This document shows, piece by piece, positions 29,350-55,604 of a stretch of 64,000 bases of DNA (position 1 is the first letter of the stretch; every line of letters starts with the position of its first letter). The notes beneath the pieces were generated by a model that was not told the origin of the DNA, ran no database searches, and worked only from the letters and a program-made list of their open reading frames with translations. Source of the DNA: Eledone cirrhosa. Taxonomy: Eukaryota. The stretch covers positions 59,396,001-59,460,000 of the forward strand of contig OZ024744.1 of assembly GCA_964016885.1 (NCBI GenBank). Reading direction: 5' to 3'. The position numbers and the translations under genes were made by a program.

Positions 29350-29431
29350 GAATAATTGCCTTATGTTGTTTATTACATAACTATATATATATATATATAG
29401 TTATGTAATAAACAACATAAGGCAATTATTT

Positions 29432-29486
29432 CATTTACCAGTGGTTTCGTGAAAGCAAACAAATTTTGCTTTCAATCATCAGAATG
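29432..29486 (-). ncRNA. Type I hammerhead (family B)
   Basis: Minus strand: catt CTGATGA ttgaaagcaaa..tttgctttcac GAAA ccactgg TA aatg. Confidence 0.85.
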
Positions 29487-29796
29487 AAAAATTCCTGGTG
29501 TATTTATTGACATTAGATTTTAAAAACAAAAATATAATCTATATGAAAGTGAGGCTGGAAAAGGAAGAAGGAAAGGAAAAATAAACACACATGCACAAAC
29601 ACACAAACACAATTACATACACACACATATATACATACACATATATATACACATACATACACATATATATATATATAGATGTATATATATATATATATAC
29701 ATACACATACACATACATATACATATATAACAACATATCCATACATACACATACACACAAATACACAAACACGCACACACACACACATGTATGTAT

Positions 29797-29841
<45 letters not shown>

Positions 29842-30319
29842 CATACACACAATCATACATATACACACACGTACATACACACACATACATACACACATAT
29901 ATACACGCATACATACGCATGCAAAAATATAGATATATGTACACACACCTACATACGCACACAAACAAATAATTATAAGAAAAAATATAATAATAAAAAT
30001 ACCGTCACATAAGAATAAAAAATAAATGTAAAAATTATTATAAAGTGACAGCGATACAGGCAACAAATAAATGAACAAACACACGTGGTAAGCAATACAC
30101 ACAATTGCACATACACATACATACATAAAAATAAATACATACACACACATACAATTACATATACACATATATATATACATACACATATACATACACACAC
30201 ACACATATATGTATGTATACATAGTATGTACACGTACATACATATATGTATACAGACGTACAGAAGTATGAATATATATATATATATATACATACATGCA
30301 CACATATATATACATACTT

Positions 30320-30800
30320 ATATTTAAGTAACAGCCGTACTAAGAGTGGGAAATGAAATTTCGTTTCATTTTTTCCCGTTTATCGTTTTCGGTGCACCCG
30401 GCCGATTAACCCACACGATATGCAAATTGGGCTACTCAGCCGTTAATATGCATAAGGTAAGTATATACGTTCAACAATCTGGCAGGAAGGTATACGTTGC
30501 TGACGATAGCTAATAAGCTTGAAACTAGTACAGCTTTCCTCACAAACGAGCAACGATGGTTGCTAGACACTACGGCTTAATACGGGATGTTTGTTTACAA
30601 ACACACGGATCATTATAATAAATGTTCGGCGAATCCATACGTACATATATATATGTGTGCATGTATATATATATACATACTACTGTACGTCTGTATACAT
30701 ATATGTATGTACGTGTACATACTTATATTTATTTATTATTTGTCGTATTCCCAACTTTTTATTTTTATATATATATAATATTTATGTATTTTCTTATATA
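30320..30800 (+). repeat. Single unit of the ~420-bp hammerhead repeat (ribozyme 30494-30536) with block-terminal tail
   Basis: Matches units at 34893-46572. Confidence 0.9.
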
Positions 30801-30947
30801 TATATGTGTGTGTGTATATGTATATATATATATGTATGTATAAATGAAGTAATTCCATCGGAAAAGTCCAGGAAAAAAGAGTGCTCTATGTAGGCAACAG
30901 AGCTTAATTATTATTATTATGTAATAAACAACATAAGGCAATTATTC

Positions 30948-31001
30948 CATTTACCAGTGGTTTCTTAAAAGCAAAAGGTTTTGCTTTCAATCCTCAGAAT
31001 G
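30948..31001 (-). ncRNA. Type I hammerhead (family B)
   Basis: Minus strand: catt CTGAGGA ttgaaagcaaaa-cc-ttttgcttttaa GAAA ccactgg TA aatg. Confidence 0.85.
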
Positions 31002-31265
31002 AAAAAATCCTGGTTTGTTTATTGAATTTGGATTACAAAAACAAAAATGCAATCTATATGAAAGTGAGGCAGGAGAAGGGAGAAGGAAAGGAAAAATAAA
31101 ATAAAACTACACATGCAAACACACACACAAAAAAACCCAAAAGCATACTTACACACACATACATATATACATATACACATATATATAAAACGTACACTTA
31201 CATACACACATACATATATACACACATATACACATACATACATTAATACATATACACACACACAC

Positions 31266-31297
<32 letters not shown>

Positions 31298-31322
31298 GCA
31301 TACACACACACATATATATATA

Positions 31323-31376
<54 letters not shown>

Positions 31377-31607
31377 CACACATACACACACATACACATG
31401 TGTGTGTACAAGCATACACATACACACACATACACATGTGTGTGTACAAGCATACACATACACAAACATAGCCATACACACACACATATATATACACATA
31501 CGTACATTCACACAAACATACAAAACGTACATACATACACATACATGAATCCACTCCTCTACATATTCACACACGCAAATAAATATAAGAAAAAATATAT
31601 ATATATA

Positions 31608-33962
31608 TTGTTATACTTTGGGAGGGTCATGTTGCCAATAAGAAACACATGCACCAGTTGCTTTCAATTCAATTTATTATATATTTATATATTTATAAAT
31701 TTATAAATTTACAAACCTATAAATTTCTGGTTGGTTGGTTGGTTCCACAACCAGATAGTTGTTTATATATAGTCATAGTCCTTTCGTCACACACACTGTG
31801 ACCTCTTCAGTGACTGGGGATTCCTTTCTTTGTTTCTGTGCCTTTCCTTTCTTCTATCCTACGCCATTTTGTTTCTGTGTGTGTGTTGTGTGCTCAGTTT
31901 GCGCATGCGCCACATCCGGGTGTCTGCGTGTGTTTGTGTTCATTTATCTATTTGTTTATTTATTTATTTATTTATTGTTGGTTGGTTGTTTGTTCTATGT
32001 GTGTGTGTGTTTTCATTTTGTCCTGTGTGTGTTTTCATTTTGTCCTTAATTGTAAGTTGTTTGTTCTATGTGTGTGTGTGTTTTCATTTTGTCCTGTGTG
32101 TGTTTTCATTTTGTCCTTAGTTGTAAGTTGTGATGTTGCTGTTCCACTCATATTTTCTATTTAATTTTGGTTTTAATTCTTTTATGCTTACTGCCGCTGT
32201 AATTTGCCTAAACATTGCGTCTTTTCTGTGTGTGGATTCTATTTTTATTTCTATGTTCTCTAATCTACCCCTGTGTTCTATCTTAGCATGTTGGTAGAGC
32301 ACAGATGATTCTTTATTATCTTGGAGGTCTCGCCAGTGTTCATTTATTCGTTCCCCTATACTACGAGCTGTCTCACCTATGTACACTATATTTTTGTTTC
32401 TACATTGTCCTTCAGTACATCTTATGCTATACACTACATTTCTAGTTTTACAGTTAATATGGGGGCTTATTTTATAGGTTATACATTTCTTATCTATACA
32501 TGAGGGTCTTTGGAACGAGTATGTCTTGCTAATAAGTGTTTTTACGGAGGTACCTGGTCTTTCTACTATCTTAATATTGAGATTATGTTTATTTAGGGCC
32601 CTTCTAAATTTGTAGGCTAGTTCGCCTCTAGGGGTTGTATTGATGAACATTACACTCTGGTATTTATTGCTATCATACCATGAGTTTATTCTATTGGCCT
32701 TGTTCCTAGTTCTTTCTATTCTATTCCAAAATTTGCTCCTATACAAGGGGCAGGTCCTATTTATGTCATTATTTACCATTTTTTCCCATTTGGTTCTGGC
32801 TCCTTTATACACTCTGATTCTATCTCTCTGATTGTAGCCAGAGAACTGCATACGGTGGATGAAGTGTTGTATGTGTCTCTCTAGTTCTTCGGGGTTGCAC
32901 ATGCGGGACACATTTCTCATCACCCGTACCAAATCCGCAATCAGTATGTTGATTTTGGTATGGTCCGAAATGGCCGAGTTTCGGTGGATCAGATGTTTGG
33001 AAGTCATGGGTTTGGCATAATGGGAAGAGGATTTGTTTTTGGTTGTTAATAGTATCTAACCAGAGCTCTGTGTCTAGTACAGGTAATCGATGGTTGGGGT
33101 GTCTACTTGGGTAGTCTATAGTAACTCTAATGCTCTGGTGGATGGAGTTTGCTATTTGCTGGATGCTTTCCATTGTGTTTTTCTCTAGTTCCTGACTGTT
33201 CTTTAGTGGGGGTGTCTTAACTACGATGTTTATATCATCTACGTAGCGGGAGTACATTATCAGGGTTAAGCTGTCTTCTAATTGTTCTTTAAGTTTTTGT
33301 TTAAGTCTACTGTCCCACCATACCATGAATAAGTTAGCTATGTCGCCTGCAATGCTAACACCAATTGCTGCTCCTTCCTCTTGGGCATATGTTTTACCAT
33401 TAAATTTGAACATATGTTCCTTAAGGGTTAATTTTATGCTGGCCCCTACCGCATGTGCAATCATTTTCTTCAGTTCATCGTGGTTTTCGGGTGTCCGTAT
33501 GGCTCTGGTCCACCCGTTCCATCTATCTGTGTGGGTTTTCTTGGCCATTGAGGTAATGGTAGGTGGTCTGCCTCTTGCTGGTCTTGTAGGGCACAGGTTA
33601 CTAAGGTCATAAGTGTTTAGGTAACTATTACTATGGGTAAGCTTAAGTAGAAGTCCCAGCTCACTGGTATCAATCCCACGGAACTCAACCTTGCTCTCGC
33701 TGATCATTTCTACGCATTTCTCCACAGCAAAATCCACGTCAATAGATGGATACAGGGACACAACATCCATACTGCCTATTATGCAGTTTGTTAGGTCCCC
33801 AGATCGGTTACCCGCGCCGATTCTGCTGAGGAGGTCCTCCGTGCTGTCACACATATCTGGGGACATCTCAATGATGGGGCGTATGATCAGGGAGAGGAAG
33901 TAGGACAGTCTGTAGTTACTAGCAATGTTAGCCCCACAGACTGGCCGTGTTGGTGGTCCCGC
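31608..33962 (-). mobile_element. Penelope-like retroelement (RT plus GIY-YIG), 5'-truncated, one frameshift, 3' end in (TA)n
   Basis: GSMDVVSLYPSI, GAAIG, SRYVDD, LPVLD; second frame CKTRNVVYSIRC..VYIGETARSIGERINEH..E..LN. Confidence 0.93.
31771..31815 (-). ncRNA. Minimal hammerhead in the PLE 3' pseudo-LTR (family C)
   Basis: Minus strand: agtca CTGAAGA g gtcac..gtgac GAAA ggac TA tgact. Confidence 0.8.
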
Positions 33963-34248
33963 AACAAAAAGAATATATGGGGGGGGGGGGGGCCTAAGAG
34001 GAGGTAACATATAAGGGGAGGTAAGGGAGAAAAACATTTAGTAAATATACAAGAGTACAGAAGGTAGAATCAGCAAAATAAAAACCGTAGCAAAAGTAAA
34101 GAGCAGAGAAGGAGTACAGGGCGGTTGATTTATCATAAGAGTGTCAATCCAGTTACAGATCAGATGCGATTTCAGATGAGGACAGCATCTGAAGATCTCA
34201 GTCTTTGAGTTAAAGCAAGCGGAAGTGGCTCTCAAGTTTAGCAGAATC

Positions 34249-34510
<262 letters not shown>

Positions 34511-34615
34511 AGAGTTAAACAAGATTCATATGAATACATCTAAGAATGAGTTTTACACATACATATGTGTGTGTATGTATTTGTATGTATATGTTTGTGT
34601 ATATGTATGTATATA

Positions 34616-34692
<77 letters not shown>

Positions 34693-34696
<4 letters not shown>

Positions 34697-36150
34697 GGAA
34701 AAAATGAAACAAAATTTCATTTCCCACTCTTAGTACGGCTGTTACTTAAATATAAGTATGTACACGTACATACATATATGTATACAGACGTACAGTAGTA
34801 TGTATATATATACATACATGCACACATATATATATGTACGTATGGATTCACCGAACATTTATTATAATGCTCGGTGTGTTTGTAAACAAACAAACCGTTT
34901 ATCGTTTTCGGTGAACCTGGCCGATTAACCCACTCGATATGCAAATTGGGCTACTCAGCTGTTAATATGCATAAGGTAAGTATATACGTTCAACAATCTG
35001 GCAGGAAGGTATACGTTGCTGACGATAGCTAATAAGCTTGAAACTAGTACAGTGTTCCTTTGTCAGTGTTGAACAAACGAGCAACGATGGTTGCTTGACA
35101 CTACGGCTTAATACGGGATGTTTGTTTACAAACACACCGAGCATTATAATAAATGTTCGGTGAATCCATACGTACATATATATATGTGTGCATGTTTGTA
35201 TATATATATATACATACTACTATACGTCTGTATACATATATGCATGTACGTGTACATACTTATATTTAAGTAACAGCCGTACTAAGAGTGGGAAATGAAA
35301 TTTCGTTTCATTTTTTCCGTTTATTGTTTTCGGTGCACCCGGCCAATTAACCCACTCGATATGCAAATTGGGCTACTCAGCGGTTAATATGCATAAGGTA
35401 AGTATATACGTTCAACAATCTGGCAGGAAGGTATACGTTGCTGACGATAGCTTAATAAGCTTGAAACTAGTACAGCGTTCCTTTGTCAGTGTTGAACAAA
35501 CGAGCAACGATGGTTGCTGGACACTCCGGCTTAATACGGGATGTTTGTTTACAAACACACCGAGCTTTATAATAAATGTTCGGTGAATCCATACGTACAT
35601 ATATATATGTGTGCCTGTATGTATATATATATATACATACTACTGTACATCTGTATACATAGATGTATGAATCTTTACATACTTATATTTAAGTAACAGC
35701 CGTACTAAGAGTGGGCAATGAAATTTCGTTTCTTTTTTTCCGTTTATCGTTTTCGGTGCACCCGGCCGTTTAACCCACTCGATATGCAAATTAGGCTCCT
35801 CAGCCGTTAATATGCATAAGGTAAGTATATACGTTCAACAATCTGGCAGGAAGGTATACGTTGCTGACGATCGCTAATAAGCTTGAAACTAGTACAGCGT
35901 TCCTAACAAACGAGCAACGATGGTTGCTAGACACTATGGCTTAATACGGGATGTTTGTTTACAAACACACCGAGCATTATAATAAATGTTCGGTGAATCC
36001 ATACGTACATATATATATGTTTGCATGTATGTATATATATATACATACTACTGTACGTCTGTACGTGCACATACTTATATTTATTTATTATTTGTCGTAT
36101 TCCCAACTTTTTATTTTTATATATATATAATATTATGTATTTTCTTATAT
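34693..36150 (+). repeat. Hammerhead repeat block: inverted head (34693-34892) plus 3 units (ribozymes at 35013, 35435, 35858) plus tail
   Basis: Unit spacing 422-423 bp; acgttg CTGACGA tagc-taataa-gctt GAAA ctag TA cagcgt. Confidence 0.92.
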
Positions 36151-36189
36151 ATATGTGTGTGTGTGTGTATATGTATATATATATATATG

Positions 36190-36228
<39 letters not shown>

Positions 36229-36233
<5 letters not shown>

Positions 36234-37417
36234 TAAACGGAATAGAAAATGCTGACAAATTGTTCACAGTTGAAAAATGGTTTAATTAGGAATAAAAGAG
36301 TACCACAACTGAATACTAACTCATACAATCACTAATACTCTTTTATTCCTAACTAGCAGTAAAGCCCGGCGTTGCTTGGGGTCGCTCAGTAGCTGTGTTA
36401 AAGTTACAATGTTAAGTTTCTTTTTTGGCTTAAAAACTGTAGTGTCTACTGTGTAGACTTGCATGTGGTGTTTTTGATTAATATTCCCTCAACCAACAAT
36501 ATGCCTTATGAAGTTAAGAAAACATAACGATAACCCGAATGTTATAACAAAAGAGGATGCTGGGGATAAAAACTGCACTGGTTATTTATTAACAAAGATC
36601 GAAAATGTAAACACTGCAACGCAGAGAAAAACATTAGCGTAACCAAATTATCAGTTATGTCTGTCTGCACGCCTATATCACCTCTCTGCACGACTATCTG
36701 TCTGCACGACTGTCTGTCTGCACGCGTATATCACCTCTCTGCACGACTATCTGTCTGCACGCGTATATCACCTCTCTGCACGACTGTCTGTCTTCACGCC
36801 TAACGAAATTTACAGATACATATATTTTAAATAAACTTATATAATTTTTGCTTTTTTTTACGAAATATTTGCTTGTTTTACGTAGTCTTTAAATAGACTT
36901 GTTTTCAAGTAAAAATATTGTTTTAAAAGGCTTTTAAATGGAAATGAAGCAAAACGGAAGCTTAGGGTTCGAACTGATGAATTTTGCAGGTCAAAATTTT
37001 GCTGGCTCGACAACTGTTCGTGTATTGTGTTAATGTCATTTTAAACGCTGAGAAAGCCAGCGTAATTTTTTTAATTTTTGCACGCAGAAAATGTAAACAG
37101 AACAAAGGGAAATAACTCGTCACTTACGCTCAAAAATCGATACATTAGATTCGATTTCGTCACATAGGGTGGGTCAATTTGAAATATTTTTTTCCGATGT
37201 CTTCGCTAGGGTTCAATGTACAAGTATAGCAATTTCGGTGCAATTCCGTCAGAGATTCTAAGAGGAGATGAGTGCCAAAAATCGATAGACAGACAGACAA
37301 CCACAGCTTTATATATATAGATTAAACCATTTTTCAACTGTGAACAATTTGTCAGCATTTTCTATTCCGTTTACCAATATATAATAACTTGTGTGTTACA
37401 CCTCTATTCTTTTAACT
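36229..37417. repeat. Fold-back element in (TA)n whose right arm is split by a Helitron
   Basis: 36229-36302 is the reverse complement of 36337-36352 joined to 37322-37380. Confidence 0.85.
36353..37321 (-). mobile_element. Non-autonomous Helitron
   Basis: Minus strand begins TCTATATATATAAAGCTG..(TGTC)n and ends with a hairpin (ccaagcaacgccggg) then CTAG; inserted at A|T with no TSD; internal tgtctgcacg minisatellite at 36658-36800. Confidence 0.9.
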
Positions 37418-37470
37418 ATATATATATATATATATATATATAATGTATAAAAATCAATACAATATAATTA

Positions 37471-37540
37471 CCTCATTACCAGAGGTTTCCCGAATGAGGC
37501 GAATACGAAAGAAACGTCTTCATTCGTTCGTCAGACGAGG
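37471..37540 (-). ncRNA. Type I hammerhead (family D) near a (TA)n-abutting end
   Basis: Minus strand: cctcgt CTGACGA acgaatgaag..cctcattcgg GAAA cctctgg TA atgagg. Confidence 0.8.
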
Positions 37541-38225
37541 CAATATAAAACATGGGTAAATACTTGGAAAGTCTCATCAAGAAAAGCAAAAAAACAAAAA
37601 AGATATAGACAAATTAATTAGAATATGAAATATATAATAATCTTTCAAGAAATATAGTTAGGTGTGTGTATATGTATGTATATACGCTCACAGATGTGCA
37701 TATTTGTGTATGCACATATGTATACGTATAGTGAAAAAATGTGCGTAAATATATAATTTAGGGCAAATGTATCTGTATGTCTGTAATCTACAGACAGAAT
37801 AGATACATCATAAGAGTATGAAGCCACGCGCATAAACACACCTACATACACGTACACTTAGATGCGGAAGTAAAAAAGGTAAGGGAGTGTAATAATTAAA
37901 GGAAAGTATCAATGTCGATATATTTATAAAAATGGAACAATAATTTAGAAAGAAAAAAATAAAGAAAAGAAGACAAACATACACACACACGTATATCACA
38001 CAAAAGAAACGCAAAATTATACATGCTTATATACACACGCACACTTACACATCCATACGTTCGATACGTACACACACACACGCACATACATACACTCACG
38101 CATATTGACCTGTTTGCATGCACACGCAAAAAAATGAGTAAGTAAAAAAAGGGGGAGAAGAATAAAGGAACAAAACATAAAACCTAGATGTAAAAAAGAC
38201 GGATATAAAGACACATACACATACG

Positions 38226-38288
<63 letters not shown>

Positions 38289-38527
38289 GCACGCGCGCGA
38301 ACAAACATAGTCGCTCATGTACATATATAGAAAGTATACACACATTAAGGCGTTCAGCCACATTGATACAGGGTGTAAAAAACTTGTGGATAAGTAAGTA
38401 CAAATATAAAATTGTACGATTGGCTGCGCAAAAATAAAAAATAGAAAGAAAGAAAAAAATATATCTGGTGTGGAAAACGCAAATGACAAGTATAATAAGT
38501 TAGTGAGGGAAATAGGGAAGTAAAAAA

Positions 38528-39460
38528 TGCACACATATATATATGTACGTATGGATTCACCGAACATTTATTATAAAGCTCGGTGTGTTTGTAAACAAAC
38601 AAACAAACAAACCGTTTATCGTTTTCGGTGAACCCGGCCGATTAACCCACTCGATATGCAAATTGGGCTACACAGCCGTTAATATGCATAAGGTAAGTAT
38701 ATACGTTCAACAATCTGACAGGAAGATATACGTTGCTGACGATAGCTTAATAAGCTTGAAACTAGTACAGCGTTCCTTTGTCAGTGTTGAAAAAACGAGC
38801 AACGATGGTTGCTTGACACCACGGCTTAATACGGGATGTTTGTTTACAAACACACCGAGCTTTATAATAAATGTTCGGTGAATGCATACATACATATGTA
38901 TATGTGTGCATGTATGTTTATATATATACATACTACTGTACGTCTGTATACATATATGTATGTACGTGTACATACTTATATTTAAGTAACAGCCGTACTA
39001 AGAGTGGGAAATGAAATTTCGTTTCATTTTTTACGTTTATCGTTTTCGGTGCACCCGGCCGATTAACCCACTCGATATGCAAATTGGGCTACTCAGCGGT
39101 TAATATGCATAAGGTAAGTATATACGTTCAACAATCTGGCAGGAAGGTATACGTTGCTGACGATAGGTAATAACTTGTAACTAGTACAGCGTTACTAACA
39201 AACGAACAACGATGGTTGCTAGACACTACGGCTTAATACGGGATGTTTGTTTACAAACACACCGAGCATTATAATAAATGTTCGGTGAATCCATACGTAC
39301 ATATATATATGTGTGCATGTATGTATATATATATACATACTACTGTACGTCTGTATACATAGATGTATGTACGTGTACATACTTATATTTATTTATTATT
39401 GGTCGTATTGCCAACTTTTTATTTTGATATATATATAATATTTATGTATCTTCTTATATG
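38528..39460 (+). repeat. Hammerhead repeat block: partial inverted head plus 2 units (ribozymes at 38730 and 39151, the latter mutated) plus tail
   Basis: Unit spacing 421 bp. Confidence 0.9.
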
Positions 39461-39482
39461 TATGTGTGTGTGTGTGTATATA

Positions 39483-39521
<39 letters not shown>

Positions 39522-39663
39522 TTAAGAGTTAAACAAGATTCATATGAATACATCTAAGAATGAGTTTTACACACATACATATGTGTGTGTATGTATTTGT
39601 ATGAATGTTTTTGTGTATATGTATGTATGTATGTATATATGTATATATATATATATATATATA

Positions 39664-41136
39664 TACATTATGAAGAGAGAAGAAACATTTAGATATAATT
39701 AGTAATAAAATGTATCATACCTAAACTGCTCCTAAATTCCTCGACTACGTAGTTTCGTGGCATAAACAAAAACAATATATCAAAGATATAGAGTCCTTGC
39801 GAGGTCTGCCAACTTATCAAGAGGATACCTCATTTTACTAGTCTCAAGAACGCGTCTACACGACGTGAGAAAGAATCCCAAAAGGCGGAGGGGGAGATAG
39901 TCACGCGATATAACGGTCGAGAAACAGAGCTAAGCCTCTTATAACCACGAAGAAAATACCACGGAGGCGGAGGGGGTATTCATATCGAGGCCGTAGAAGA
40001 GGTAGTGAAGAAGGCGAGAAGTATGAGTAATGGAAGCTTTCCAGTTGTCCCCACACTTCAAAGATTGCTCGACCAGAGGGAGTTATTAATATATTTAGAA
40101 ACACACAGATACATGCGGACACACACATATATACATGAATGCATCCGCACCCAACTGTGAGTTAAGGGTGCCAACTTCACCGATGTTGCTCAATGAATGA
40201 CTGGGACAGACCAATTCAGTTTGAACCAGACTGAACCAGTATCAGAGTTAAAAATACATTATGAAGAGAGAAGAAACATTTAGATATAATTAGTAATAAA
40301 ATGTATCATACCTAAACTGCTCCTAAATTCCTCGACTACGTAGTTTCGTGGCATAAACAAAAACAATATATCAAAGATACAGAGTCCTTGCGAGGTCTGC
40401 CAACTTATCAAGAGGATACCTCATTTTACTAGTCTCAAGAACGCGTCTACACGACGTGAGAAAGAATCCCAAAAGGCGGAGGGGGAGATAGTCACGCGAT
40501 ATAACGGTCGAGAAACAGAGCTAAGCCTCTTATAACCACGAAGAAAATACCACGGAGGCGGAGGGGGTATTCATATCGAGGCCGTAGAAGAGGTAGTGAA
40601 GAAGGCGAGAAGCATGAGTAATGGGAGCTTTCCAGTTGTCCCCACACTTCAAAGATTGCTCGACCAGAGGGAGTTATTAATATATTTAGAAACACACAGA
40701 TACATGCGGACACACACATATATACGTTATATCGCGTGACTATCTCCCCCTCCGCCTTTTGGGATTCTTTCTCACGTCGTGTAGACGCGTTCTTGAGACT
40801 AGTAAAATGAGGTATCCTCTTGATAAGTTGGCAAACCTCGCAAGGACTCTATATCTTTGATATATTGTTTTTGTTTATGGCACGAAACTACGTAGTCGAG
40901 GAATTTAGGAGCAGTTTAGGTATGATACATTTTATTACTAATTATATCTAAATGTTTCTTCTCTCTTCATAATGTATTTTTAACTCTGATACTGGTTCAG
41001 TCTGGTTCAAACTGAATTGGTCTGTCCCAGTCATTCATTGAGCAACATCGGTGAAGTTGGCACCCTTAACTCACAGTTGGGTGCGGATGCATTCATGTAT
41101 ATATGTGTGTGTCCGCATGTATCTGTGTGTTTCTAA
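39664..41136 (-). mobile_element. Non-coding PLE-type element: 591-bp tandem repeat (39664-40254, partial 40255-40724) plus inverted copy (about 40727-41136), in (TA)n
   Basis: Duplicated pseudo-ORFs 39901 and 40492 offset by 591 bp; third copy is the reverse complement. Confidence 0.9.
39738..39825 (-). ncRNA. Hammerhead with U3:A8 core (family E); further copies 40329-40416 (minus) and 40815-40902 (plus)
   Basis: tcctc TTGATAA gttggca..tgccac GAAA ctacgtag TC gagga; palindromic stem III ACTACGTAGT. Confidence 0.8.
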
Positions 41137-41143
41137 ATATATA

Positions 41144-41196
<53 letters not shown>

Positions 41197-41200
<4 letters not shown>

Positions 41201-41830
41201 GGAAAAAATGAAACGAAATTTCATTTCCCACTCTTAGTACGGCTGTTATTTAAATATAAGTATGTACACGTGCATACAGATATGTATACAGACATACAGT
41301 AGTATGTATATATATATACATACATGCACACATATATATATGTAGGTATGGATTCACCGAACATTTATTATAAAGCTCGGTGTGTTTGTAAACAAACAAA
41401 CCGTTTATCGTTTTCGGTGAACCCGGCCGTTTAACCCTCTCGATATGCAAATTGGGCTACTCAGCCGTTAATATGCATAAGGTAAGTATATACGTTCAAC
41501 AATCTGGCAGGAAGGTATACGTTGCTGACGATAGCTAATAAGCTTGAAACTAGTACAGCGTTCCTAACAAACGAACAACGATGGTTGCTAGACACTACGG
41601 CTTAATACGGGATGTTTGTTTACAAACACACCGAGCATTATAATAAATGTTCGGTGAATCCATACGTACATATATATATGTGTGCATGTATGTATATATA
41701 TATATACATACTACTGTACGTCTGTATACATATATGTATGTACGTGTACATACTTATATTTATTTATTATTTGTCGTATTCCCAACTTTTTATTTTTATA
41801 TATATATAATATTTATGTATTTTCTTATAT
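41197..41830 (+). repeat. Hammerhead repeat block: inverted head plus 1 unit (ribozyme at 41519) plus tail
   Basis: Same head, unit and tail as 34693-36150. Confidence 0.9.
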
Positions 41831-41870
41831 ATATGTGTGTGTGTGTGTGTATATGTATATATATATATAT

Positions 41871-41941
<71 letters not shown>

Positions 41942-42044
41942 AGAGTTAAACAAGATTCATATGAATACATCTAAGAATGAGTTTTACACACATACATATG
42001 TGTGTGTATGTATTTGTCTGTATATGCTAGTGTATATGTATGTA

Positions 42045-42109
<65 letters not shown>

Positions 42110-42113
<4 letters not shown>

Positions 42114-45100
42114 GGAAAAAATGAAACGAAATTTCATTTCCTACTCTTAGTACAGCTGTTACTTAAATATAAGTATGTACACGTACATACAGATATGTAT
42201 ACAGACGTACAGTAGTATATATATATATATATATATATACATACATGCACACATATATAAATGTACGTATGGATTCACCGAACATTTATTATAAAGCTCG
42301 GTGTGTTTGTAAACAAACAAACAAACAAACCGTTTATCGTTTTCGGTGAACCCGGCCGATTAACCCACTCGATATGCAAATTGGGCTACTCAGCCGTTAA
42401 TATGCATAAGGTAAGTATATACGTTCAACAATCTGACAGAAAGATATACGTTGCTGACGATAGCTAATAAGCTTGAAACTAGTACAGCGTTCCTTTGTCA
42501 GTGTTGAACAAACGAGCAATGATGGTTGCTGGACACTACGGCTTAATACGGGATGCTTGTTTACAAACACACCGAGCATTATAATAAATGTTCGGTGAAT
42601 CCATACGTACATATATATATGTATACCTGTATGTATATATATATACATACTACTGTACGTCTGTATACATATATGTATGTACGTGTACATACTTATATTT
42701 AAGTAACAGCCGTACTAAGAGTGGGAAATGAAATTTCGTTTCATTTTTTCCGTTTATCGTTTAAGGTGCACCCGGCCGATTAACCCACTCGATATGCAAA
42801 TTGGGCTACTCAGCCGTTAATATGCATAAGGTAAGTATATACGTTCAACAATCTGGCAGGAAGGTATACGTTGCTGACGATAGCTAATAAGCTTGAAACT
42901 AGTACAGCGTTCCTTTGTCAGTGTTGAACAAACGAGCAACGATGGTTGCTTGACACTACGGCTTAATACGGGATGTTTGTTTACAAACACACCGAGCATT
43001 ATAATAAATGTTCGGTGAATCCATACGTACATATATATATGTGTGCATGTATGTATATATATATATACATACTACTGTACGTCTGTATACATATATGTAT
43101 GTACGTGTACATACTTATATTTAAGTAACAGCCGTACTAAGAGTGGGAAATGAAATTTTGTTTCATTTTTTCCGTTTATCGTTTTCGGTGCACCCGGCCG
43201 ATTAACCCACTCGATATGCAAATTGGCCTACTCACCGGTTAATATGCATAAGGTAAGTATATACGTTCAACAATCTGGCAGGAAGGTATACGTTGCTGAC
43301 GATAGCTTAATAAGATTGAAACTAGTACAGTGTTCCTTTGTCAGTGTTGAACAAACGAGCAACGATGGTTGCTGGACACTACGGCTTAATACGGGATGTT
43401 TGTTTACAAACACACGGAGCATTATAATAAATGTTCGGTGAATCCATACGTACATATATATATGTGTGCATGTATGTATATATATATACATACTACTGTA
43501 CGTCTGTATACATATATGTATGTACGTGTACATACTTATATTTAACTAACAGTCGTACTAAGAGTGGGAAATGAAATTTCGTTTCATTTTTTCCGTTTAT
43601 CGTTTTCGGTGAACCCGGCCGATTAACCCATTCGATATGCAAATTGGGCTACTCAGCCTTAATATGCATAAGGTAAGTATATACGTTCAACAATCTGGCA
43701 GGAAGGTATACGTTGCTGACGATAGCTAATAAGCTTGAAACTAGTACAGCGTTCCTTTGTCAGTGTTGAACAAACGAGTAACGATGGTTGCTGGACACTA
43801 CGGCTTAATACGAGCTGTTTGTTTACAAACACACCGAGCATTATAATAAATGTTCGGTGAATCCATACGTACATATATATATGTATGCCTGCATGTATAT
43901 ATATATACATACTACTGTACGTCTGTATACATATATGTATGTACGTGTACATACTTATATTTAAGTAACAGCACTACTAAGAGTGGGAAATGAAATTTCG
44001 TTTCATTTTTTCCGTTTATCGTTTACGGTACACCCGGCCGATTAACCCACTCGATATGCAAATTGGGCTACTCAGCCGTTAATATGCATAAGGTAAGTAT
44101 ATACGTTCAACAATCTGTCAGGAAGGTATACGTTGCTGACGATAGCTAATAAGCTTGAAACTAGTACAGCGTTCCTTTGTCAGTGTTGAACAAACGAGCA
44201 ACGATGGTTGCTTGACACTACGGCTTAATACGGGATGTTTGTTTACAAACACACCGAGCATTATAATAAATGTTCGGTGAATCCATACGTACATATATAT
44301 ATGTGTGCATGTATGTATATATATATATATACATACTACTGTACGTCTGTATACATATATGTATGTACGTGTACATACTTATATTTAAGTAACAGCCGTA
44401 CTAAGAGTGGGAAATGAAATTTTGTTTCATTTTTTCCGTTTATCGTTTTCGGTGCACCCGGCCGATTAACCCACTCGATATGCAAATTGGCCTACTCAGC
44501 GGTTAATATGCATAAGGTAAGTATATACGTTCAACAATCTGGCAGGAAGGTATACGCTGCTGACGATAGCTTAATAAGCTTGAAACTAGTACAGTGTTCC
44601 TTTGTCAGTGTTGAACAAACGAGCAACGATGGTTGCTGGACACTACGGCTTAATACGGGATGTTTGTTTACAAACACACGTAGCATTATAATAAATGTTC
44701 GGTGAATCCATACGTACATATATATATGTGTGCATGTATGTATATATATATACATACTACTGTACGTCTGTATACATATATGTATGTACGTGTACATACT
44801 TATATTTAAGTAACAGCCGTACTAAGAGTGGGAAATGAAATTTCGTTTCATTTTTTCCGTTTATCGTTTTCGGTGAACCCGGCCGATTAACCCATTCGAT
44901 ATGCAAATTGGGCTACTCAGCCTTAATATGCATAAGGTAAGTATATACGTTCAACAATCTGGCAGGAAGGTATACGTTGCTGACGATAGCTAATAAGCTT
45001 GAAACTAGTACAGCGTTCCTTTGTCAGTGTTGAACAAACGAGTAACGATGGTTGCTGGACACTACGGCTTAATACGAGCTGTTTGTTTACAAACACACCG

Positions 45101-45295
45101 AGCATTATAATAAATGTTCGGTGAATCCATACGTACACATATATATATGTGTGCATGTATGTATATATATATATACATACTACTGTACGTCTGTATACAT
45201 ATATGTATGTACGTGTACATACATATATTTTTTTTATTATTTGTCGTATTCCCAACTTTTTATTTCTATATATATATAACATTTATGTATTTTCT

Positions 45296-45300
<5 letters not shown>
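42110..45300 (+). repeat. Hammerhead repeat block: inverted head plus 7 units (ribozymes at 42448, 42868, 43290, 43710, 44130, 44554, 44974) plus tail
   Basis: Spacing 420-424 bp; catalytic core conserved in all seven. Confidence 0.93.
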
Positions 45301-45332
<32 letters not shown>

Positions 45333-45348
45333 ATATATATATATATAT

Positions 45349-45405
<57 letters not shown>

Positions 45406-45502
45406 AGAGTTAAACAAGATTCATATGAATACATCTAAGAATGAGTTTTACACACATACATATGTGTGTGTATGTATTTGTCTGTATATGCTTGTGTATA
45501 TG

Positions 45503-45577
<75 letters not shown>

Positions 45578-45581
<4 letters not shown>

Positions 45582-46572
45582 GGAAAAAATGAAACGAAAT
45601 TTCATTTCCCACTCTTAATACGGTTGTTACTTAAATATAAGTATGTACACGTACATACATATATGTATACAGACGTACAGTAGTATGTATATATACATAC
45701 ATGCACACATATATATATGTACGTATGGATTCACCGACATTTATTATAAAGCTCGGTGTGTTTGTAAACAAACAAACAAACAAACCGTTTATCGTTTTCG
45801 GTGAACCCGGCCGATTAACCCACTCGATATGCAAATTGGGCTACTCAGCCGTTAATATGCATAAGGTAAGTATATACGTTCAACAATCTGGCAGAAAGGT
45901 ATACCTTGCTGACGATAGCTAATAAGCTTGAAACTAGTACAGCGTTCCTTTGTCACTGTTTAACAAACGAGCAACGATGGTTGCTGGACACTACGGCTTA
46001 ATACGGGATGCTTGTTTACAAACACACCGAGCATTATAATAAATGTTCGGTGAATCCATACGTACATATATATATGTATGCCTGTATGTATATATATATA
46101 CATACTACTGTACGTCTGTATACATATATGTATGTACGTGTACATACTTATATTTAAGTAACAGCCGTAGTAAGAGTGGGAAATGAAATTTCGTTTCATT
46201 TTTTCCGTTTATCGTTTACGGTGAACCCGGCCGATTAACCCACTCGATATGCAAATTGGGCTACTCAGCCGTTAATATGCATAAGGTAAGTATATATGTT
46301 CAACAATCTGGCAGGAAGGTATACGTTGCTGACGATAGCTAATAAGCTTGAAACTAGTACAGCGTTCCTTTGTCAGTGTTGAACAAACGAGCAACGATGG
46401 TTGCTGGACACTACGGCTTAATACGGGATTTCTGTTTACAAACACCGATCACTATAATAAATGTTTGGTGAATCCATACGTACATATATATATATATGTG
46501 TGCATGTATGTATGTATATATACATACTACTGTACGTCTGTATACGTATATGTATGTACGTGTACATACTTA
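45578..46572 (+). repeat. Hammerhead repeat block: inverted head plus 2 units (ribozymes at 45903, 46323)
   Basis: Spacing 420 bp; ends in (TA)n. Confidence 0.9.
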
Positions 46573-46576
46573 TCTA

Positions 46577-46609
<33 letters not shown>

Positions 46610-46613
<4 letters not shown>

Positions 46614-47605
46614 CGAAGGAAATGTGGTAAGGAACCAGGTGGACCATAACGCACCAAAGTACTCAATACTTGAGGTAGTAGAGTGGGTAATAGGAACCAG
46701 TAAGACCCCGACAGCTGAGCTCAAGCCGTTTCGACGGCTAATTCTGGACTAAATGAACATTTATCCTGGTATTTAAATAGCCGATCTTCTCAAGGGGTAA
46801 TTCCATATATGGTCAAAGTGATTGTCAAAAATCAGTAGTAATTCTGTGGTTGCAAATTAGTAGGGGAGATGGTGGCTAAACCTGCCAGTAGGAGAAAGAG
46901 GGGAGGGGGTGGAGTAGACCCAATCAAGAGTTGGTAGTGCCAGCTACAGCTGGGCATGAGGTCAAAGAAGATACAGGGGAGGGGGAGGGGGAGGAAGTCG
47001 GAACGGTAGGTAGAACAATGGGGGGTAGAAATAGGAAAGAAAAAATACTGAGAGTGAAGAAAAGCAAATAAGTGTAAAGAAAAAAGTAAAGTAAATTAAA
47101 TTCTACGACCTAGGTGTCAGGCTATTGTTAGGCGAGAATAAAATAAAGAAAGATTATTTTATTCTCGCCTAACAATAGCCTGACACCTAGGTCGTAGAAT
47201 TTAATTTACTTTACTTTTTTCTTTACACTTATTTGCTTTTCTTCACTCTCAGTATTTTTTCTTTCCTATTTCTACCCCCCATTGTTCTACCTACCGTTCC
47301 GACTTCCTCCCCCTCCCCCTCCCCTGTATCTTCTTTGACCTCATGCCCAGCTGTAGCTGGCACTACCAACGCTTGATTGGGTCTACTCCACCCCCTCCCC
47401 TCTTTCTCCTACTGGCAGGTTTAGCCACCATCTCCCCTACTAATTTGCAACCACAGAATTACTACTGATTTTTGACAATCACTTTGACCATATATGGAAT
47501 TACCCCTTGAGAAGATCGGCTATTTAAATACCAGGATAAATGTTCATTTAGTCCAGAATTAGCCGTCGAAACGGCTTGAGCTCAGCTGTCGGGGTCTTAC
47601 TGGTT

Positions 47606-47609
<4 letters not shown>
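46610..47609 (-). mobile_element. Near-perfect fold-back element (arms about 46690-47146 and 47154-47609, tail 46610-46689) in (TA)n
   Basis: About 455-bp arms with a roughly 7-nt loop; one hammerhead per arm. Confidence 0.92.
47502..47595 (+). ncRNA. Hammerhead with U3:A8 core (family F); mirror copy 46705-46798 on minus
   Basis: acccc TTGAGAA gatcggcta..tagccgtc GAAA cggcttgagctcagctg TC ggggt. Confidence 0.82.
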
Positions 47610-47644
<35 letters not shown>

Positions 47645-47646
<2 letters not shown>

Positions 47647-48189
47647 CGTTTCTGAATTTGTTTAGCAAGATTCTTTATCTGAAATCGTGTGTTGAAACCG
47701 ATATTGTTATACTTTGGGAGGGTCATGTTGCCAATAAGAAACACACGCACCAGTTGCTTTCATTTCAATTTATTATGTATTTATAAATTTACAAATTTAT
47801 AAATTTCTTGCTGGTTGGTTGGTTCCACAACCAGATAGTTGTTTATATATAGTCATAGTTCTTTCGTCACACACTCTGTGACCTCTTCAGTGACTGGGGA
47901 TTCCTTTCTTTGTTTCTGTGCCTCTCCTTTGTTCCGTCCTACGCCATTTTCTGGCGTACGACAGAACAAAGGAAAGGCACAGAAACAAAGAAAGGAATCC
48001 CCAGTCACTGAAGAGGTCACAGAGTGTGTGACGAAAGAACTATGACTATATATAAACAACTATCTGGTTGTGGAACCAACCAACCAACCAGAAATTTATA
48101 AATTTGTAAATTTATAAATACATAATAAATTGAAGTGAAAGCAACTGGTGCGTGTGTTTCTTATTGGCAACATCACCCTCCCAAAGTAT

Positions 48190-48197
<8 letters not shown>
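47645..48197 (-). mobile_element. Fold-back pseudo-LTR of the PLE family at 31608-33962 (arms about 47701-47946 and 47952-48197, tail 47645-47700)
   Basis: Matches 31606-31870; hammerheads at 47851-47895 (minus) and 48003-48047 (plus): agtca CTGAAGA ggtcac..gtgac GAAA gaac TA tgact. Confidence 0.9.
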
Positions 48198-48231
<34 letters not shown>

Positions 48232-48916
48232 GTATATATATATGTATATATATGTGTGTGTGTGTATGTATATGTGTATGTGTATGGGTATATGTATATG
48301 TATGTGTATGTGTGTGTGTATGTATTTATTTTTATGTGCAATTGTATGTATTTTAAAAGAATTCATTACACTTAATATTATTGCTCCTTAGGTTGAGCTG
48401 AAAGTAGCCTCATATATACGGCTGTTATATCTAGCAGTACGGTTATGAGGCTAGCTAGAAACTGTAAACCATGTGCGTTACACAGTCTTTTAAATTATTT
48501 AGAAGTGAAGCATATCAATTTGTTCCTGGATGTTTACTGAAGAGAGCAGGACATGATATCCTTACACTTTTTTTTATCTCGAAACATATTTGGATTTTAA
48601 AGTTTAAACTTATCTACGGAACAGGTTTGATTTTGAAATTTAAATGTGTCTAAACATCAAGGCCTTTTGGCAATACAGTTCGTCTTTGTTGATTTATTAT
48701 TTTAAATCGATATGGACAGACTGTAATATTATAATTAGTATACTTCATTCTAGCTAAGTAAATTTTCTTTTACAATATAAATACAGATATGTTGGTATTT
48801 GTGTTTCATCATATATATTAATTTATATTTAAATGTTTTATATTTAAATGTTTTACACGGCTCAGAAATATTTCTTTCTTTGAGCTAATTTCATTGTAAA
48901 AGAATTCATTACACTT

Positions 48917-48965
<49 letters not shown>

Positions 48966-48968
<3 letters not shown>

Positions 48969-49302
48969 AAAGTTCTGTTTAAATTGTTGGGATACAACAA
49001 GCAAATATTTTTATAACTGATACAAAGCACTCAACAAATATTTGGAGTAAAAATACGATATTAACAAATGGAAACTATATTTATAAAACCATATTTATTT
49101 CATTATACATATTTCAAGGACACCAAGTTAAATTATGGTGCGCTTTCATCAGATAAAACATATATTATATATTATATATTATATAGATCTATATTATATT
49201 TTATCTGCTGAAAGCACACCATAGTTTAACTTGGTGTCCTTGAAATATGTATAATGAAATAAATATGGTTTTATAAATATAGTTTCCATTTGTTAATATC
49301 GT
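48966..49302 (-). mobile_element. Fold-back element with hammerhead-like core (arms about 49055-49160 and 49198-49302)
   Basis: Minus strand 49157-49101: CTGATGA aagcgcacca..tggtgtcctt GAAA tatg TA; the plus arm has CTGCTGA; stem I imperfect. Confidence 0.7.
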
Positions 49303-49375
49303 ATATATGTATATATATGTGTGTATGTGTATGCATGTGTATGTATATGTGTATGTATATATGTGTGTGTATGTA

Positions 49376-49432
<57 letters not shown>

Positions 49433-49466
49433 TTGTGTGTGTGTGTGCGTGTGCGTGTGTGTGTAG

Positions 49467-49530
<64 letters not shown>

Positions 49531-49636
49531 ATGTGTGTTTATTTTTCCTTTCCTTCTTCCTTTTCCAGCCTCACTTTCATATAAATTATATTTTTGTTTT
49601 TAAAATCCAATGTCAATAAATACACCAGGATTTTTT

Positions 49637-49691
49637 CATTCTGATGACTGAAAGCAAAATTTGTTTGCTTTCAAGAAACCACTGGTAAATG
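49637..49691 (+). ncRNA. Type I hammerhead (family B)
   Basis: catt CTGATGA ctgaaagcaaa..tttgctttcaa GAAA ccactgg TA aatg. Confidence 0.85.
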
Positions 49692-49844
49692 AAATAATTG
49701 CCTTATGTTATTTATTACATAACTATTAAGCTCTGTAACCTACATAGAGCACTCTTTTTTCCTGTACCTTTCCGACGGAATTACTTCATTTATATATATA
49801 TATAACAAGGATGATTGGTTAGTCCTTCATTACGTTTATTGGTT

Positions 49845-51629: not shown

Positions 51630-54600
51630 CCACCCTCTGCTTAGACTGGAAAGCAGTCGATAAAAATGAGGAGGTCTGCAAAGGTAACATAAGTCATGCA
51701 AAGCAAATACAAAAATGAGGAAAAAAGGGAAAAAAGAATAATTCATATGTAAATTGTTTTACAAAGTTTCTTGGGCCAATGGACCTGACCTGACGACCAC
51801 TACGAATTGTCGTGATGTATATTGAAGGTAAAGGAGTGTTTGTATGTGATTGTGGTGTTTGCGGTGGTGCTTGTATTGACACATTGTAGGAGGGGGGAGT
51901 ATGAGGCTCTGGTGTGAGAGCATCTGTGTAGGCCCGCTTCAATCTGTCAATAGAGAGTGTGTCTTTATGTCCATTAATGTCAATGGCGAAATGTTTATCT
52001 GTACGTACAAGTACACGATAGGGTCCAGAATAAGGTGGAGTGAGAGGACTTCTCACTGCGTCATTTCTGACAAAACATGGGTCCACGAGGCAATGTCCCT
52101 CGGAACCGAAGATTTAATGGTTTGTTGCCTAGTGTTCATAGGAGGCAGGACTTGAAAATACGCACGCAAACGGGTCACATATAGTGTAGGGTCCTGAGTA
52201 GCAAGGTCAACTAGGGCAAGCATCTGCCCAGGAAGAGATAATGTAGTGCCATACAAAAGCTCAGCTGGAGAGAATCCAAGGTTCTCTTGCATTGAAGTGC
52301 GGATACCGAGTAATACTATGGGGAGGTAGTTGCTCCAATGTAGAGTATCCAGATAGGCACGCAATGCGGTCTTTAACTGGCGATGAAAACGTTCTACCAT
52401 TCCATTAGATGCACGGTGGTAACTTGTAGTCCTGATGCGTTGAGCGCCGATGATATTCGATAGATCCCTGAAAAGTTGGGATTCAAACTGCCTACCACGA
52501 TCTGTAGTAATAGTGGTAGGAACCCCATAGCGCGATATCCATCCTGAAACCAGGGCTCGCGCTACAGATTCAGCAGTAATGTCACTAAGAGGAATGGCTT
52601 CAGGCCATCGGGTGAAACGGTCAATACAGGTCAGGATGTATGAACATCCACGACTGGCAGGCCAAGGTCCCACGATATCAATGTGTATGTGGCAAAAACG
52701 TGCGTCAGGTGTGCTAAATGTGCCGACAGGTGCGCGAATATGTTTATGCACCTTCGACTTTTGACAAGATAAACAGGAACGTGACCAAGCAGTGATATCA
52801 CTTCTCATATTCGGCCAGAAGAATCTAGCTGAAATGAGTTTCACTGTGGCGGAAATTCCGGGGTGTGCCAAACTATGTAGAGAATCGAAAACTATTCGAC
52901 AATGAGTCTCTGGTACCAGAGCGCGAGGTGAATCTGTCGCAGTATCACACAGAATCTGAGAGTCCGAAGTGGGTACAGGCAGGTATTTAAATTTGCAGGT
53001 TGCAAATTCAGGTGAAGACAGATCCAACGACTCTAGGGTGGGCTGTTCTGCAGCCACAAGATGCAAGTCAACAGTCGCAGGTGCTGACAAAGCATTGATG
53101 GGTAGGCGAGATAAGGCATCCGACGCTGTGTTTTGATCACCCGGTATATGACGAATGTCATTCGTAAACTGGGATATGAAGTCCAAGTGACGAGTTTCTT
53201 TGTCCGGATTGAAACTGCGTGCGAACGTAAGTGGACGATGGTCAGTATAGATCGTAAACTGTTGGCCTTCCAGTGAATGCCGAAACTGTTTCACAGCAAG
53301 GAAAATTGTTAACAGTTCGCGGCCGAAGGTGCTATAGCGAGATTCGGCAGGCTTCAGGTGCTTAAAAAAGAAAGCAAGAGGTTGAAGCTGTTGTTGGTGG
53401 TTCTGCTGCAATACTGCACCTACCTCAGTGCTTGATGTATCAACAACCAGCGAAAACTGGGCACCAGACACAGAGTGAGCAAGCAGTGATGCGTTTGCTA
53501 AATTCTGTTTAGCTTTGGAGAATGCTTCAAGTTGAATGGGTCCCAAAGCGACTGGCTCGTTCTTCTTCTACGCAGGAGATCAGATAGTGGGGTTAAGAGT
53601 TCTACGCAATGCGGCATAAACCTAGGATAATAATTTAGGAAGCCTAGGAACTGCCACAGCTGTCGCAAAGAAGTAGCCTTCACTTTCTCAGGAAGTGGGA
53701 ATGTTCCCTCAGAGTTTATCACGTGGCCTAAAAAGACGAGTGAAGCAGCGCCAAAAATACACTTCGCAGGGTTAATGCGAACTTGGTACTGCCTAAATCG
53801 TTCAAACAGTTGGCGGAGGTGCGAGATATGGTCCTCCGGTGAAGCACTCGCGATGAGAATATCGTCGATGTAGCAGTATACAAAATCCAGGTCGCGGACG
53901 ACTTCGTCCATAAATCGCTGAAAGGTACTAACAGCATTGCGTAGTCCAAAAGGCATTGTTAAAAACTCGAATGCACCGAAAGGTGTAGTGAGAGCAGTTT
54001 TAGGAATGTCTGCAGGATTCACATGAATTTGATGGTATGCTCTCTGATCAGGCCCAATTTTGAAAAGATAGTACATCCATGAAGCGAAGAAGTGAAATCC
54101 TGGATGTGAGGAATTGGGTAACGGTCCGGCACGGTGATCGAATTTAATCGCTGAAACTCTCCAGTGGGATGCCAGTCTCCCGAATGTTTCGGCACCATGT
54201 GCAAAGGCGAGGCCCACGGACTGGAAGAAAGGCGAATGATACCCAACTGCAGCATATGGTTAAACTCTGCCTTAGCCGCTTTCAATTTTTCCGGAGCAAA
54301 GCGACGCGGGCGTGAATAAATGGAGCACCCTTAGTCTCAATAAAATGTTTGGTAGAGTGAGTAGGGGTATCTACCAGAAAGTTCAGGTTCGTTAATTCCG
54401 GAAAGGAATGCAAAGGCGTATGATACGGGTCATCCGAAGCAGCGATGTAGAAGACTGGACTGATAGGCTGGATTACAGACGTACGTCCAAGCGCAGAAAG
54501 ATTCGTAGTTGCGTCCAATAAACGACATGTCCGCATATCAACCATAAGATTGAAATGATGCAAAAAATCAGCACCCGGAATAGGATATGACAAATCAGCT

Positions 54601-55604
54601 ATGGTGAAAATCAATAAGAAATCTCTACGTAAATCCAGGTCTAAAGAGCGAGAGATTTGTCCATAAGTAGGGATAGCTGAATGGTTTATAGCTTGTAGTG
54701 ATATGTGTGAGAGAGGAGGTTTCTCTTTCAAGAGTTTTAACGGCCAAATGCTGCAAGACGCACCCGTGTCGACGAGGCAGTGTGCATGCGAGAAGGAATC
54801 CGTAATGAAAAATGCACGACTTTCAGTACTGAATTGCGAAGAAGACGTCGTGCTTAATTCTCCGTTACTTCGTTTCCCCGGAGTAAAAAGGAACAAGGCT
54901 GGATACATTTATGAGCAGAGGTTCCGAAACGGTTATGGTAAACGCATGCTCGCGATGGTGAAGGTTGGAAACGACGACGTGAAGAATTCGAGCGATTCCG
55001 CGACCGTTGTCGGGGAGATCTCGATCTGGATAAACGAAGAAGTTGTACCTCCTTCGTAAGGTCAAGGATGGCTTTTAGTGTTTCTTCGTTGGTCGAAGTG
55101 GCGCTGGCTGAAACTGATGCGACAGGAAAAGGTGAATCATTTGTTGCAAGTCGTGATGGGGTAGTAGTGGTCGAATTGCCGGAGTACTCCAAAATGTTAT
55201 CAGTGGATGACGCCAACTGATCCACCGAACTGGTTTCGGTCATCGCTGCTAAAATGGCCTGAACATTAGGCGGCAGCCTAGAGAAGAAAAGGTGCGTGAT
55301 CATGGCGCTGTCGGCCGGTGCGTCTTCCGCCAGCTCTCTCATCCTCCGTAAGAGCTGTGTAGGTGTATAGTCGCCAAGGTGCACATCGTTAACTAGAGTG
55401 CGAAACTTCCTTTCCGCCGAGACAGAAGTGCGGTTAATAATTTCTTTTTTTATGCAGCTATAGGTCGCCTCCGCAGCCGGGTTGGGAATTAAGAGAACGA
55501 ATGTGAGATTGACCATGTATTCATACGCAACTTCCCATTGGTCAGTTTGACCTTATTACGTATGAAAATGTTGCTATTGCGAGGTGCGACGTAGTTCCAC
55601 TACA
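51240..55604 (-). mobile_element. Ty3/Gypsy LTR retrotransposon, decayed (gag, PR, RT, RH, IN), with TSD AATGT
   Basis: LVDTGA; SSPWASPLHMV, PDRYPIP, MPFGL, YIDD; HHCC and [19 protein letters not shown]; GPY/F; PPT at 51630-51641; TSD at 51235-51239 and 55605-55609. Confidence 0.96.

Follow-up and report, generated by a model that had tools for sequence, protein, structure and literature searches.

The 64,000-nucleotide stretch of Eledone cirrhosa DNA analysed here (hereafter the window) comprises positions 59396001-59460000 of C28 within a 3.0-Gb assembly, has a G+C content of 38%, and is rich in TA, CA and TG microsatellites. Apart from microsatellite read-through, its long open reading frames look like remnants of transposons (five were scanned with Pfam). 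The subject of this report is an array with two levels of repetition, in which a 422-bp unit (reference copy at 42750-43171) is present 16 times on the + strand, in six blocks, 0 to 5, of 1 (at 30376), 3, 2, 1, 7 and 2 units. The last unit of every block stops at unit position 369-374 of 422. Blocks 1, 3, 4 and 5 start with an inverted copy of unit positions ~219-422 (the head), of which block 2 retains 75 bp, and a tail sequence is present after blocks 0-4 and absent after block 5. Wherever the linker has no insertion, the start of the tail lies 345-347 bp from the start of the next head; three of the five linkers are interrupted, in their TA tracts, by later repeats. Reversed-pattern controls returned no match in any of the six genome searches, so the pattern is not due to chance.

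Read from the left, the array is bordered by an inverted arm (29397-30222, - strand) of a second element, host B. BLAST matches to L001, L030 and L036 and comparison with host copies place this arm in the host's 3' region, from just past the TA tract of the spacer, a sequence that recurs between blocks, to a 3' end. Block 0 (30223-30731, + strand) consists of an inverted arm (unit 274-366; 30223-30321), a direct piece (unit ~362-422) and one unit that is cut at 374 and carries a 12-bp deletion; both its outer ends lie at T1, one of two unit positions (T1, 368-375; T2, 417-422) that recur below. The first tail copy with its TG/TA tract follows (30732-30822, +), and then come later insertions in the TA tract (30823-34250, -), namely an inverted host-B 3' end (matched over 30843-31034) and a broken Penelope-like reverse transcriptase (RT)-endonuclease frame (32117-34037; RVT_1, E 8e-05, below the curated cut-off). 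A spacer copy (34508-34602, +) precedes block 1 (34693-36083, +), which has a head (34693-34898) and three units and is followed by a tail copy with a TG/TA tract (36084-36229, +). Other DNA occupies 36230-38526, where a spacer and ~125 bp of a head are missing, and block 2 (38527-39391, +) is made up of the head remnant and two mosaic units. Its tail, TA tract and spacer (39392-39618, +) are followed by another dispersed repeat that entered the TA tract later as a two-armed insertion (39663-41140), by block 3 (41197-41762, +) with a head and a single unit, by the next tail, TA tract and spacer (41763-42035, +), by block 4 (42110-45232, +) with a head and seven units, and by a last tail, TA tract and spacer (45233-45499, +). 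Block 5 (45578-46573, +) has a head that ends at T2 and two units, ending at T1 and running into (TA)n without a tail. Past later insertions (46613-48193), host B resumes on the + strand (48194-49790) with the sequence that follows the spacer, interrupted and partly deleted, and reaches a 3' end at 49790.

Much of this layout had been described in the original prediction. Its 41-nt spacer has exact matches at all four positions given (34508, 39522, 41939 and 45403); its unit counts of 3, 2, 1, 7 and 2 are borne out, with an additional one-unit block at 30.2-30.7 kb; and the tails said to close four of five blocks are seen at 36084, 39392, 41763 and 45233, with a further one at 30732. The short deletion noted in the terminal units at 30.5, 35.9, 39.2 and 41.5 kb is the 12-bp one, lies 3' of the ribozyme, and does not occur in the terminal units at 45.0 and 46.3 kb. 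Other statements held in part. The inversion junction opens all five of the blocks then described, but the ~200-bp inverted head attributed to each is just 75 bp long in block 2. The proposed order of spacer, (TA)n and head is found in direct contact in three of the five, but blocks 2 and 3 depart from it: block 2 (38527) has no spacer and is preceded by 2.3 kb of other DNA, and between block 3 and its spacer lies an insertion of 1.5 kb (39663-41140). The blocks placed within 34508-46572 are there, but the array begins at ~30.2 kb, and 3.4 kb of later insertions split its first tail from its first spacer. The pattern is real but less regular than first described. It is also no macrosatellite in the usual sense, that is, an uninterrupted array of many near-identical multi-kb units; its six blocks measure 0.5-3.1 kb and form an old, short array broken by later insertions.

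The repeat unit and the element around it

Judged by its motif and distribution, the 422-bp unit is a dispersed minimal-hammerhead retrozyme. The reference unit holds a minimal type I hammerhead motif (42870-42909, +) with both core strands, a 4-bp stem II and a palindromic stem III; cleavage is predicted after 42904 (unit position 155). All 16 units have the core strands, stem II and GUA site, intact in 15 of them. The fold of the 121-nt ribozyme region has a z-score of -3.34, while the 51-nt core alone folds no better than shuffled sequences (z -0.17). In the predicted fold, stem I continues as a long helix, the 3' strand of which is taken out by the 12-bp deletion (predicted ~-29 vs -15 kcal/mol). 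Rfam gave no match in the unit at the gathering score, and no frame of at least 150 aa runs over the units. The ribozyme motif has 19,273 genome matches with up to 2 mismatches; like all genome match counts given here, this is a lower bound, though 108 and 19,273 matches were returned for dispersed parts of the array.

Dispersed copies were sampled from fetched stretches, of which L001-L040 came from 100 listed spacer matches, with preference for pairs, L041-L079 from the first 100 exact motif matches on C1 (with a bias to young copies) and L080 from the junction list. An inverted arm followed by a direct arm was seen in 29 of 47 unit clusters, in 25 of 40 fetched loci, with scattered junction positions, in agreement with the earlier reading of head plus units as the two-armed insertion layout of Penelope-like elements (PLEs). 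A BLAST census placed 66 of 76 outer ends of dispersed insertions at T1 (31) or T2 (35), mostly into (TA)n. We infer that the unit is mobilised by a PLE enzyme. Neither unit maps nor tblastn of the window's PLE frames on the 80 fetched stretches, a search that was not genome-wide, revealed a frame with the unit as its repeat. A listing of sequencing runs containing the unit included no RNA run; runs X4 to X20, labelled as other organisms, contain 12-40% of the unit's words, and the X4 reads show short pieces.

Some dispersed arrays are unusually uniform. At L047:3427-6392, seven units are near-identical, differing by 0-4 substitutions, a pattern that copying a single template over and over would give. 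L079:2523-6732 (C1, ~49.584-49.588 Mb) holds a ten-unit inverted arm with a period of two, in whose last six units alternate units are identical and neighbours differ at 13 sites; rolling-circle copying of a putative circle of two units would fit this, as would a dimer recently duplicated as DNA. L057 has a two-unit period too.

The unit resembles the animal non-LTR retrozymes of PMC7229834 and bioRxiv 10.64898/2026.07.22.740005, which are described as non-coding tandem units of a few hundred bp, each with a type I hammerhead, dispersed in thousands of copies and co-occurring with PLEs. Its 422 bp slightly exceed the 170-400 nt of PMC7229834 and fall within the 51-972 bp of the preprint, which gives unequal crossover as the accepted way of local expansion and in which eight of nine predicted elements failed to cleave. 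It differs from those retrozymes in that its motif is of the minimal PLE type and in that it forms part of a second-level repeat with a piece of another element. For PLE insertions, partial tandems, an inverted 5'-truncated copy and a 30-40 bp tail have been described (PMC8557442; PMC11167929). The two-armed layout and AT-rich targets are shared with the insertions seen here, and T1 and T2, ~50 nt apart, resemble the pair of RT start sites by which the same sources define the PLE tail. Unlike in a PLE, what is called the tail in the window is host DNA and not a PLE tail, and the unit encodes no protein.

The dispersed copies indicate that tail and spacer are inner parts of the 3' region of host B, a separate, probably Hydra-type PLE. 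In 40 stretches around spacer matches, 26 of 50 spacers are preceded by the tail, and 34 of 35 tails share an upstream sequence that belongs to host B, while none follows the retrozyme. The tail is thus not the retrozyme element's own, as had been suggested, nor is the spacer a unique flank, since it has 108 genome matches as part of another dispersed element. The refuting condition then named, that spacer and tail accompany all dispersed copies, had a divided outcome: spacer and tail are dispersed, yet never with the retrozyme unit (none of 50 dispersed spacers is followed by a head). In L001, the broken frame of host B contains motifs of an RT and a CxCX5C linker and resembles an endonuclease at its end; in the four other frames scanned, the endonuclease regions were not recognised by Pfam. 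Its RT followed by a GIY-YIG-like region, its CxCX5C linker and its (TA)n insertion liken host B to Hydra-clade PLEs, for which this linker and (TA)n targeting are described (PMC8557442 section 11), the assignment being made from motifs in one broken copy. The 3' region of host B is long and microsatellite-rich. Its downstream sequence flanks the array on the minus strand to the left (29397-30222) and on the plus strand to the right (48194-49790), and the array is nested inside one two-armed copy of B that lacks its centre.

Retrozyme and host pieces meet at other loci as well. At L004:2295-2900, a 5'-truncated retrozyme arm is joined directly to an opposite-facing host-B piece (possibly a two-RNA insertion), and at L005:100-365 a 148-bp retrozyme piece stands in place of host B sequence including the tail. 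On C4 (203.9-204.7 Mb), five same-strand spacer matches lie 124-150 kb apart and are followed by a reversed one, probably a large segmental array.

Two neighbouring insertions as probable founders

The array was probably made by two founder insertions, A0 on the left and A5 on the right, and by unequal exchange between them. Block 0 forms a whole two-armed insertion by itself, its arms meeting at a junction of their own (274/362) and both outer ends lying at T1; the right end adjoins B's (ATTT)n run ahead of the tail. Block 5 is likewise a whole insertion, with ends T2 and T1, in the (TA)n after the spacer. These founders were ~350 bp apart, and the inner blocks 1-4 are hybrids of them, with the right founder's inversion junction at the start and the left founder's junction to the tail at the end. 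Since each end of the array is a complete insertion, and the two differ in junction and in diagnostic bases, the single insertion of the original prediction is likely wrong. The four terminal units with the deletion carry A at position 202, the majority base of the family (31 of 36 loci), and the remaining 12 units have G or T there. An A at position 20 marks all five first units and occurs in three other units and in 1 of 36 dispersed loci. The sole unit of block 3 is recombinant, combining the first-unit base at 20 with the terminal-unit deletion and base at 202. In block 4, the last unit reaches the tail without the deletion, which puts the founder switch after position 224. Units 5-7 of this block are a younger copy of units 2-4, the pairs 2/5 and 3/6 differing by 3 and 6 substitutions as against 10-18 for other pairs. 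The earlier proposal that n changed independently agrees with these unit variants, which indicate exchange between units.

The junctions that define the blocks were found in the window only. All four genome matches of the unit-to-tail junction lie there (the fifth copy has diverged), as do all four of the 12-bp deletion. For the inversion junction, five of 17 loose matches fall in the window, the other 12 having different junction letters, and a second search placed five of six there, the outside match again differing. With all three marks confined to the window, the array is locus-specific, as had been predicted. Two candidate explanations were dropped on these grounds: the deletion is not a family variant, as none of 65 dispersed matches has the short form, and the whole block is not a mobile unit, as its junctions are not dispersed.

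Non-allelic homologous recombination between neighbouring repeats in the same orientation yields a tandem duplication in which every new junction carries a hybrid repeat, the founders survive intact at the two ends and the copy number varies. The array departs from simple cases of this kind, and from simple higher-order satellites, in that short tandem arrays take the place of single repeats as recombination partners, so that one exchange alters both the number of blocks and n. In the proposed sequence of events, a Penelope-type RT would have made both insertions, one at the (ATTT)n that precedes the tail and the other in the (TA)n that follows the spacer, in the same orientation and on either side of a ~350-bp piece of B. 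Out-of-register exchange between founder units (~95% identical) would then have duplicated tail, spacer and head repeatedly and altered n, and other elements would have inserted into the TA tracts afterwards. Unequal exchange of this kind would account for the hybrid blocks, the diagnostic bases and the variable n. Measured against the family majority, window units show 1-10 differences in ~265 sites; this divergence is similar to the distances between heads and suggests that expansion began soon after insertion.

A comparable case was found at L061/L081 (C1, 19.618-19.625 Mb), where two neighbouring insertions with different junctions flank a third element, and this element has been duplicated together with the right founder's head. 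At 7 sites (2-104) the hybrid unit agrees with the right founder, and at 14 sites (128-372) with the left one, with one clean crossover. A duplication with a period of 800 bp has also affected the left founder. This is the one higher-order case in 40 sampled loci. The third element and the insertion at 39663-41140 of the window belong to the same family. A founder switch at the ribozyme cut was rejected for L061 and block 4, and likely for block 3; the last unit of block 2 (switch within 66-166) is undecisive.

Alternative explanations

Several observations weigh against two founders joined by exchange. The host sequence expected to the left of A0 is absent from the window (the best match has 20 mismatches in 57), so either a deletion or a template jump must be added, for which L005 and L004 respectively provide a precedent. 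Distances between the four full heads are nearly equal (4-8 differences in ~200 bp), which suggests that early growth may have been fast and also fits a single amplification burst. Window units are mosaic, leaving single crossover points unreadable for most of them, and the position-20 base that marks first units is shared by three non-first units. The boundary between blocks 1 and 2 has neither a spacer nor most of a head. In addition, when reads of four runs were placed on 41200-41840 (simple repeats skipped), the family was present in all four, and no piece crossed the block junctions.

The missing host centre is taken up by an alternative that we regard as rather unlikely, in which the founder pair stems from one retroposition: a PLE RT copying a host-B RNA in which A5 was already present switched at T1 to the RNA of a retrozyme, and unequal exchange at the DNA level came after. 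Both junctions between A0 and host B are at T1, one and the same host region is joined to T1 in the left arm and at the right end of the array, the L004 arm meets an opposite-facing host piece directly, and tandem plus inverted PLE inserts are described (PMC8557442). On the other hand, genome searches found no source locus with the A5 junction, the left and right T1-to-host junctions differ in sequence, and L005, where a retrozyme piece replaces host sequence, is a precedent for deletion at insertion. The near-equidistant heads, together with the head-to-tail arrangement of all blocks, also suit a DNA circle excised between the founders, amplified by rolling circle and re-integrated in place, with n diverging later. 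This is improbable: shared derived states conflict (junction length groups heads 1 and 3 against 2, 4 and 5; position 187, blocks 2 and 3; position 30, blocks 1 and 3; spacers 4 and 5 differ at 1 of 96 positions), and block 4 has a younger three-unit duplication. The conflicting states and this duplication would call for stepwise exchange even with a DNA circle.

A version of the reading put forward originally, in which one insertion and its flank were tandemly duplicated through chance microhomology of the unit with the host's (ATTT)n, can draw on ~6 nt of microhomology at the unit-to-tail junction and on the local confinement of the junctions. We consider it very unlikely, as block 0 has an inversion junction of its own, the unit-to-tail junction falls at T1, the family's usual end, and the terminal units carry the family-majority base at 202 that is missing from the other 12. 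Hardly credible is a block that moves as RNA, with cleavage from ribozyme to ribozyme freeing a chimeric circle, composed of a unit end, tail, spacer, head and unit start, to be reverse-transcribed repeatedly. The hammerhead core is intact in 15 of 16 units, and identical or alternating units are seen in dispersed arrays (L047, L079), but the junctions are not dispersed and the circle presupposes the chimeric junction. Moreover, founders switch away from the cut at 155, namely at 104-128 in L061, after 224 in block 4 and likely at 20-30 in block 3. These switch points, of which the one at L061 by itself argues against an RNA circle, largely refute the idea. An assembly artefact might be suspected in a repeat-rich region whose junctions no read piece crossed among the four runs, but this too is exceedingly improbable, given that the copies differ by 2-4% and carry private insertions and structured shared variants. 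Two founders with unequal exchange between them is the probable reading, the alternatives diverging chiefly over the origin of the founders.

Meaning of the locus and neighbouring repeats

Element type and probable expansion process are both known, the latter being an ordinary one, and no host function is indicated. Its value is that of a worked example, a two-level satellite born from nested retroelements in which founders and hybrids can still be read. It is also a warning that tandem retrozyme arrays need not mean rolling-circle RNA copying, as the array here was reshaped at the DNA level. A keyword search of the open-access literature found no two-level array from nested retrozymes, which does not show that none exists. 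More speculatively, and with considerable doubt, a Penelope-type RT might hop between RNAs (the autonomous element's and the retrozyme's) within one integration and produce chimeric inserts with built-in direct repeats, pairs of which in TA tracts would be a recurring nursery of composite higher-order satellites. If so, with ~19,000 retrozyme units crowding the same TA tracts, the window locus and L061 would be two cases caught early.

Other elements surround and interrupt the array. Another Penelope-like family with a broken RT-endonuclease frame occupies 31602-34250 and 47645-48193 of the window, and related frames occur in 15 fetched loci; its terminal repeat shows, by eye, a second hammerhead-like motif (near 31790-31815 and 47865-48040). 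Further two-armed palindromic repeats in TA tracts lie at 46613-47610, 39663-41140, 36230-37380 and 48920-49300, making the locus a nest of such repeats. Downstream, at 52053-55552, is a Gypsy-like LTR retrotransposon remnant with pieces of gag, protease, RT, RNase H and integrase, its frames read by eye.

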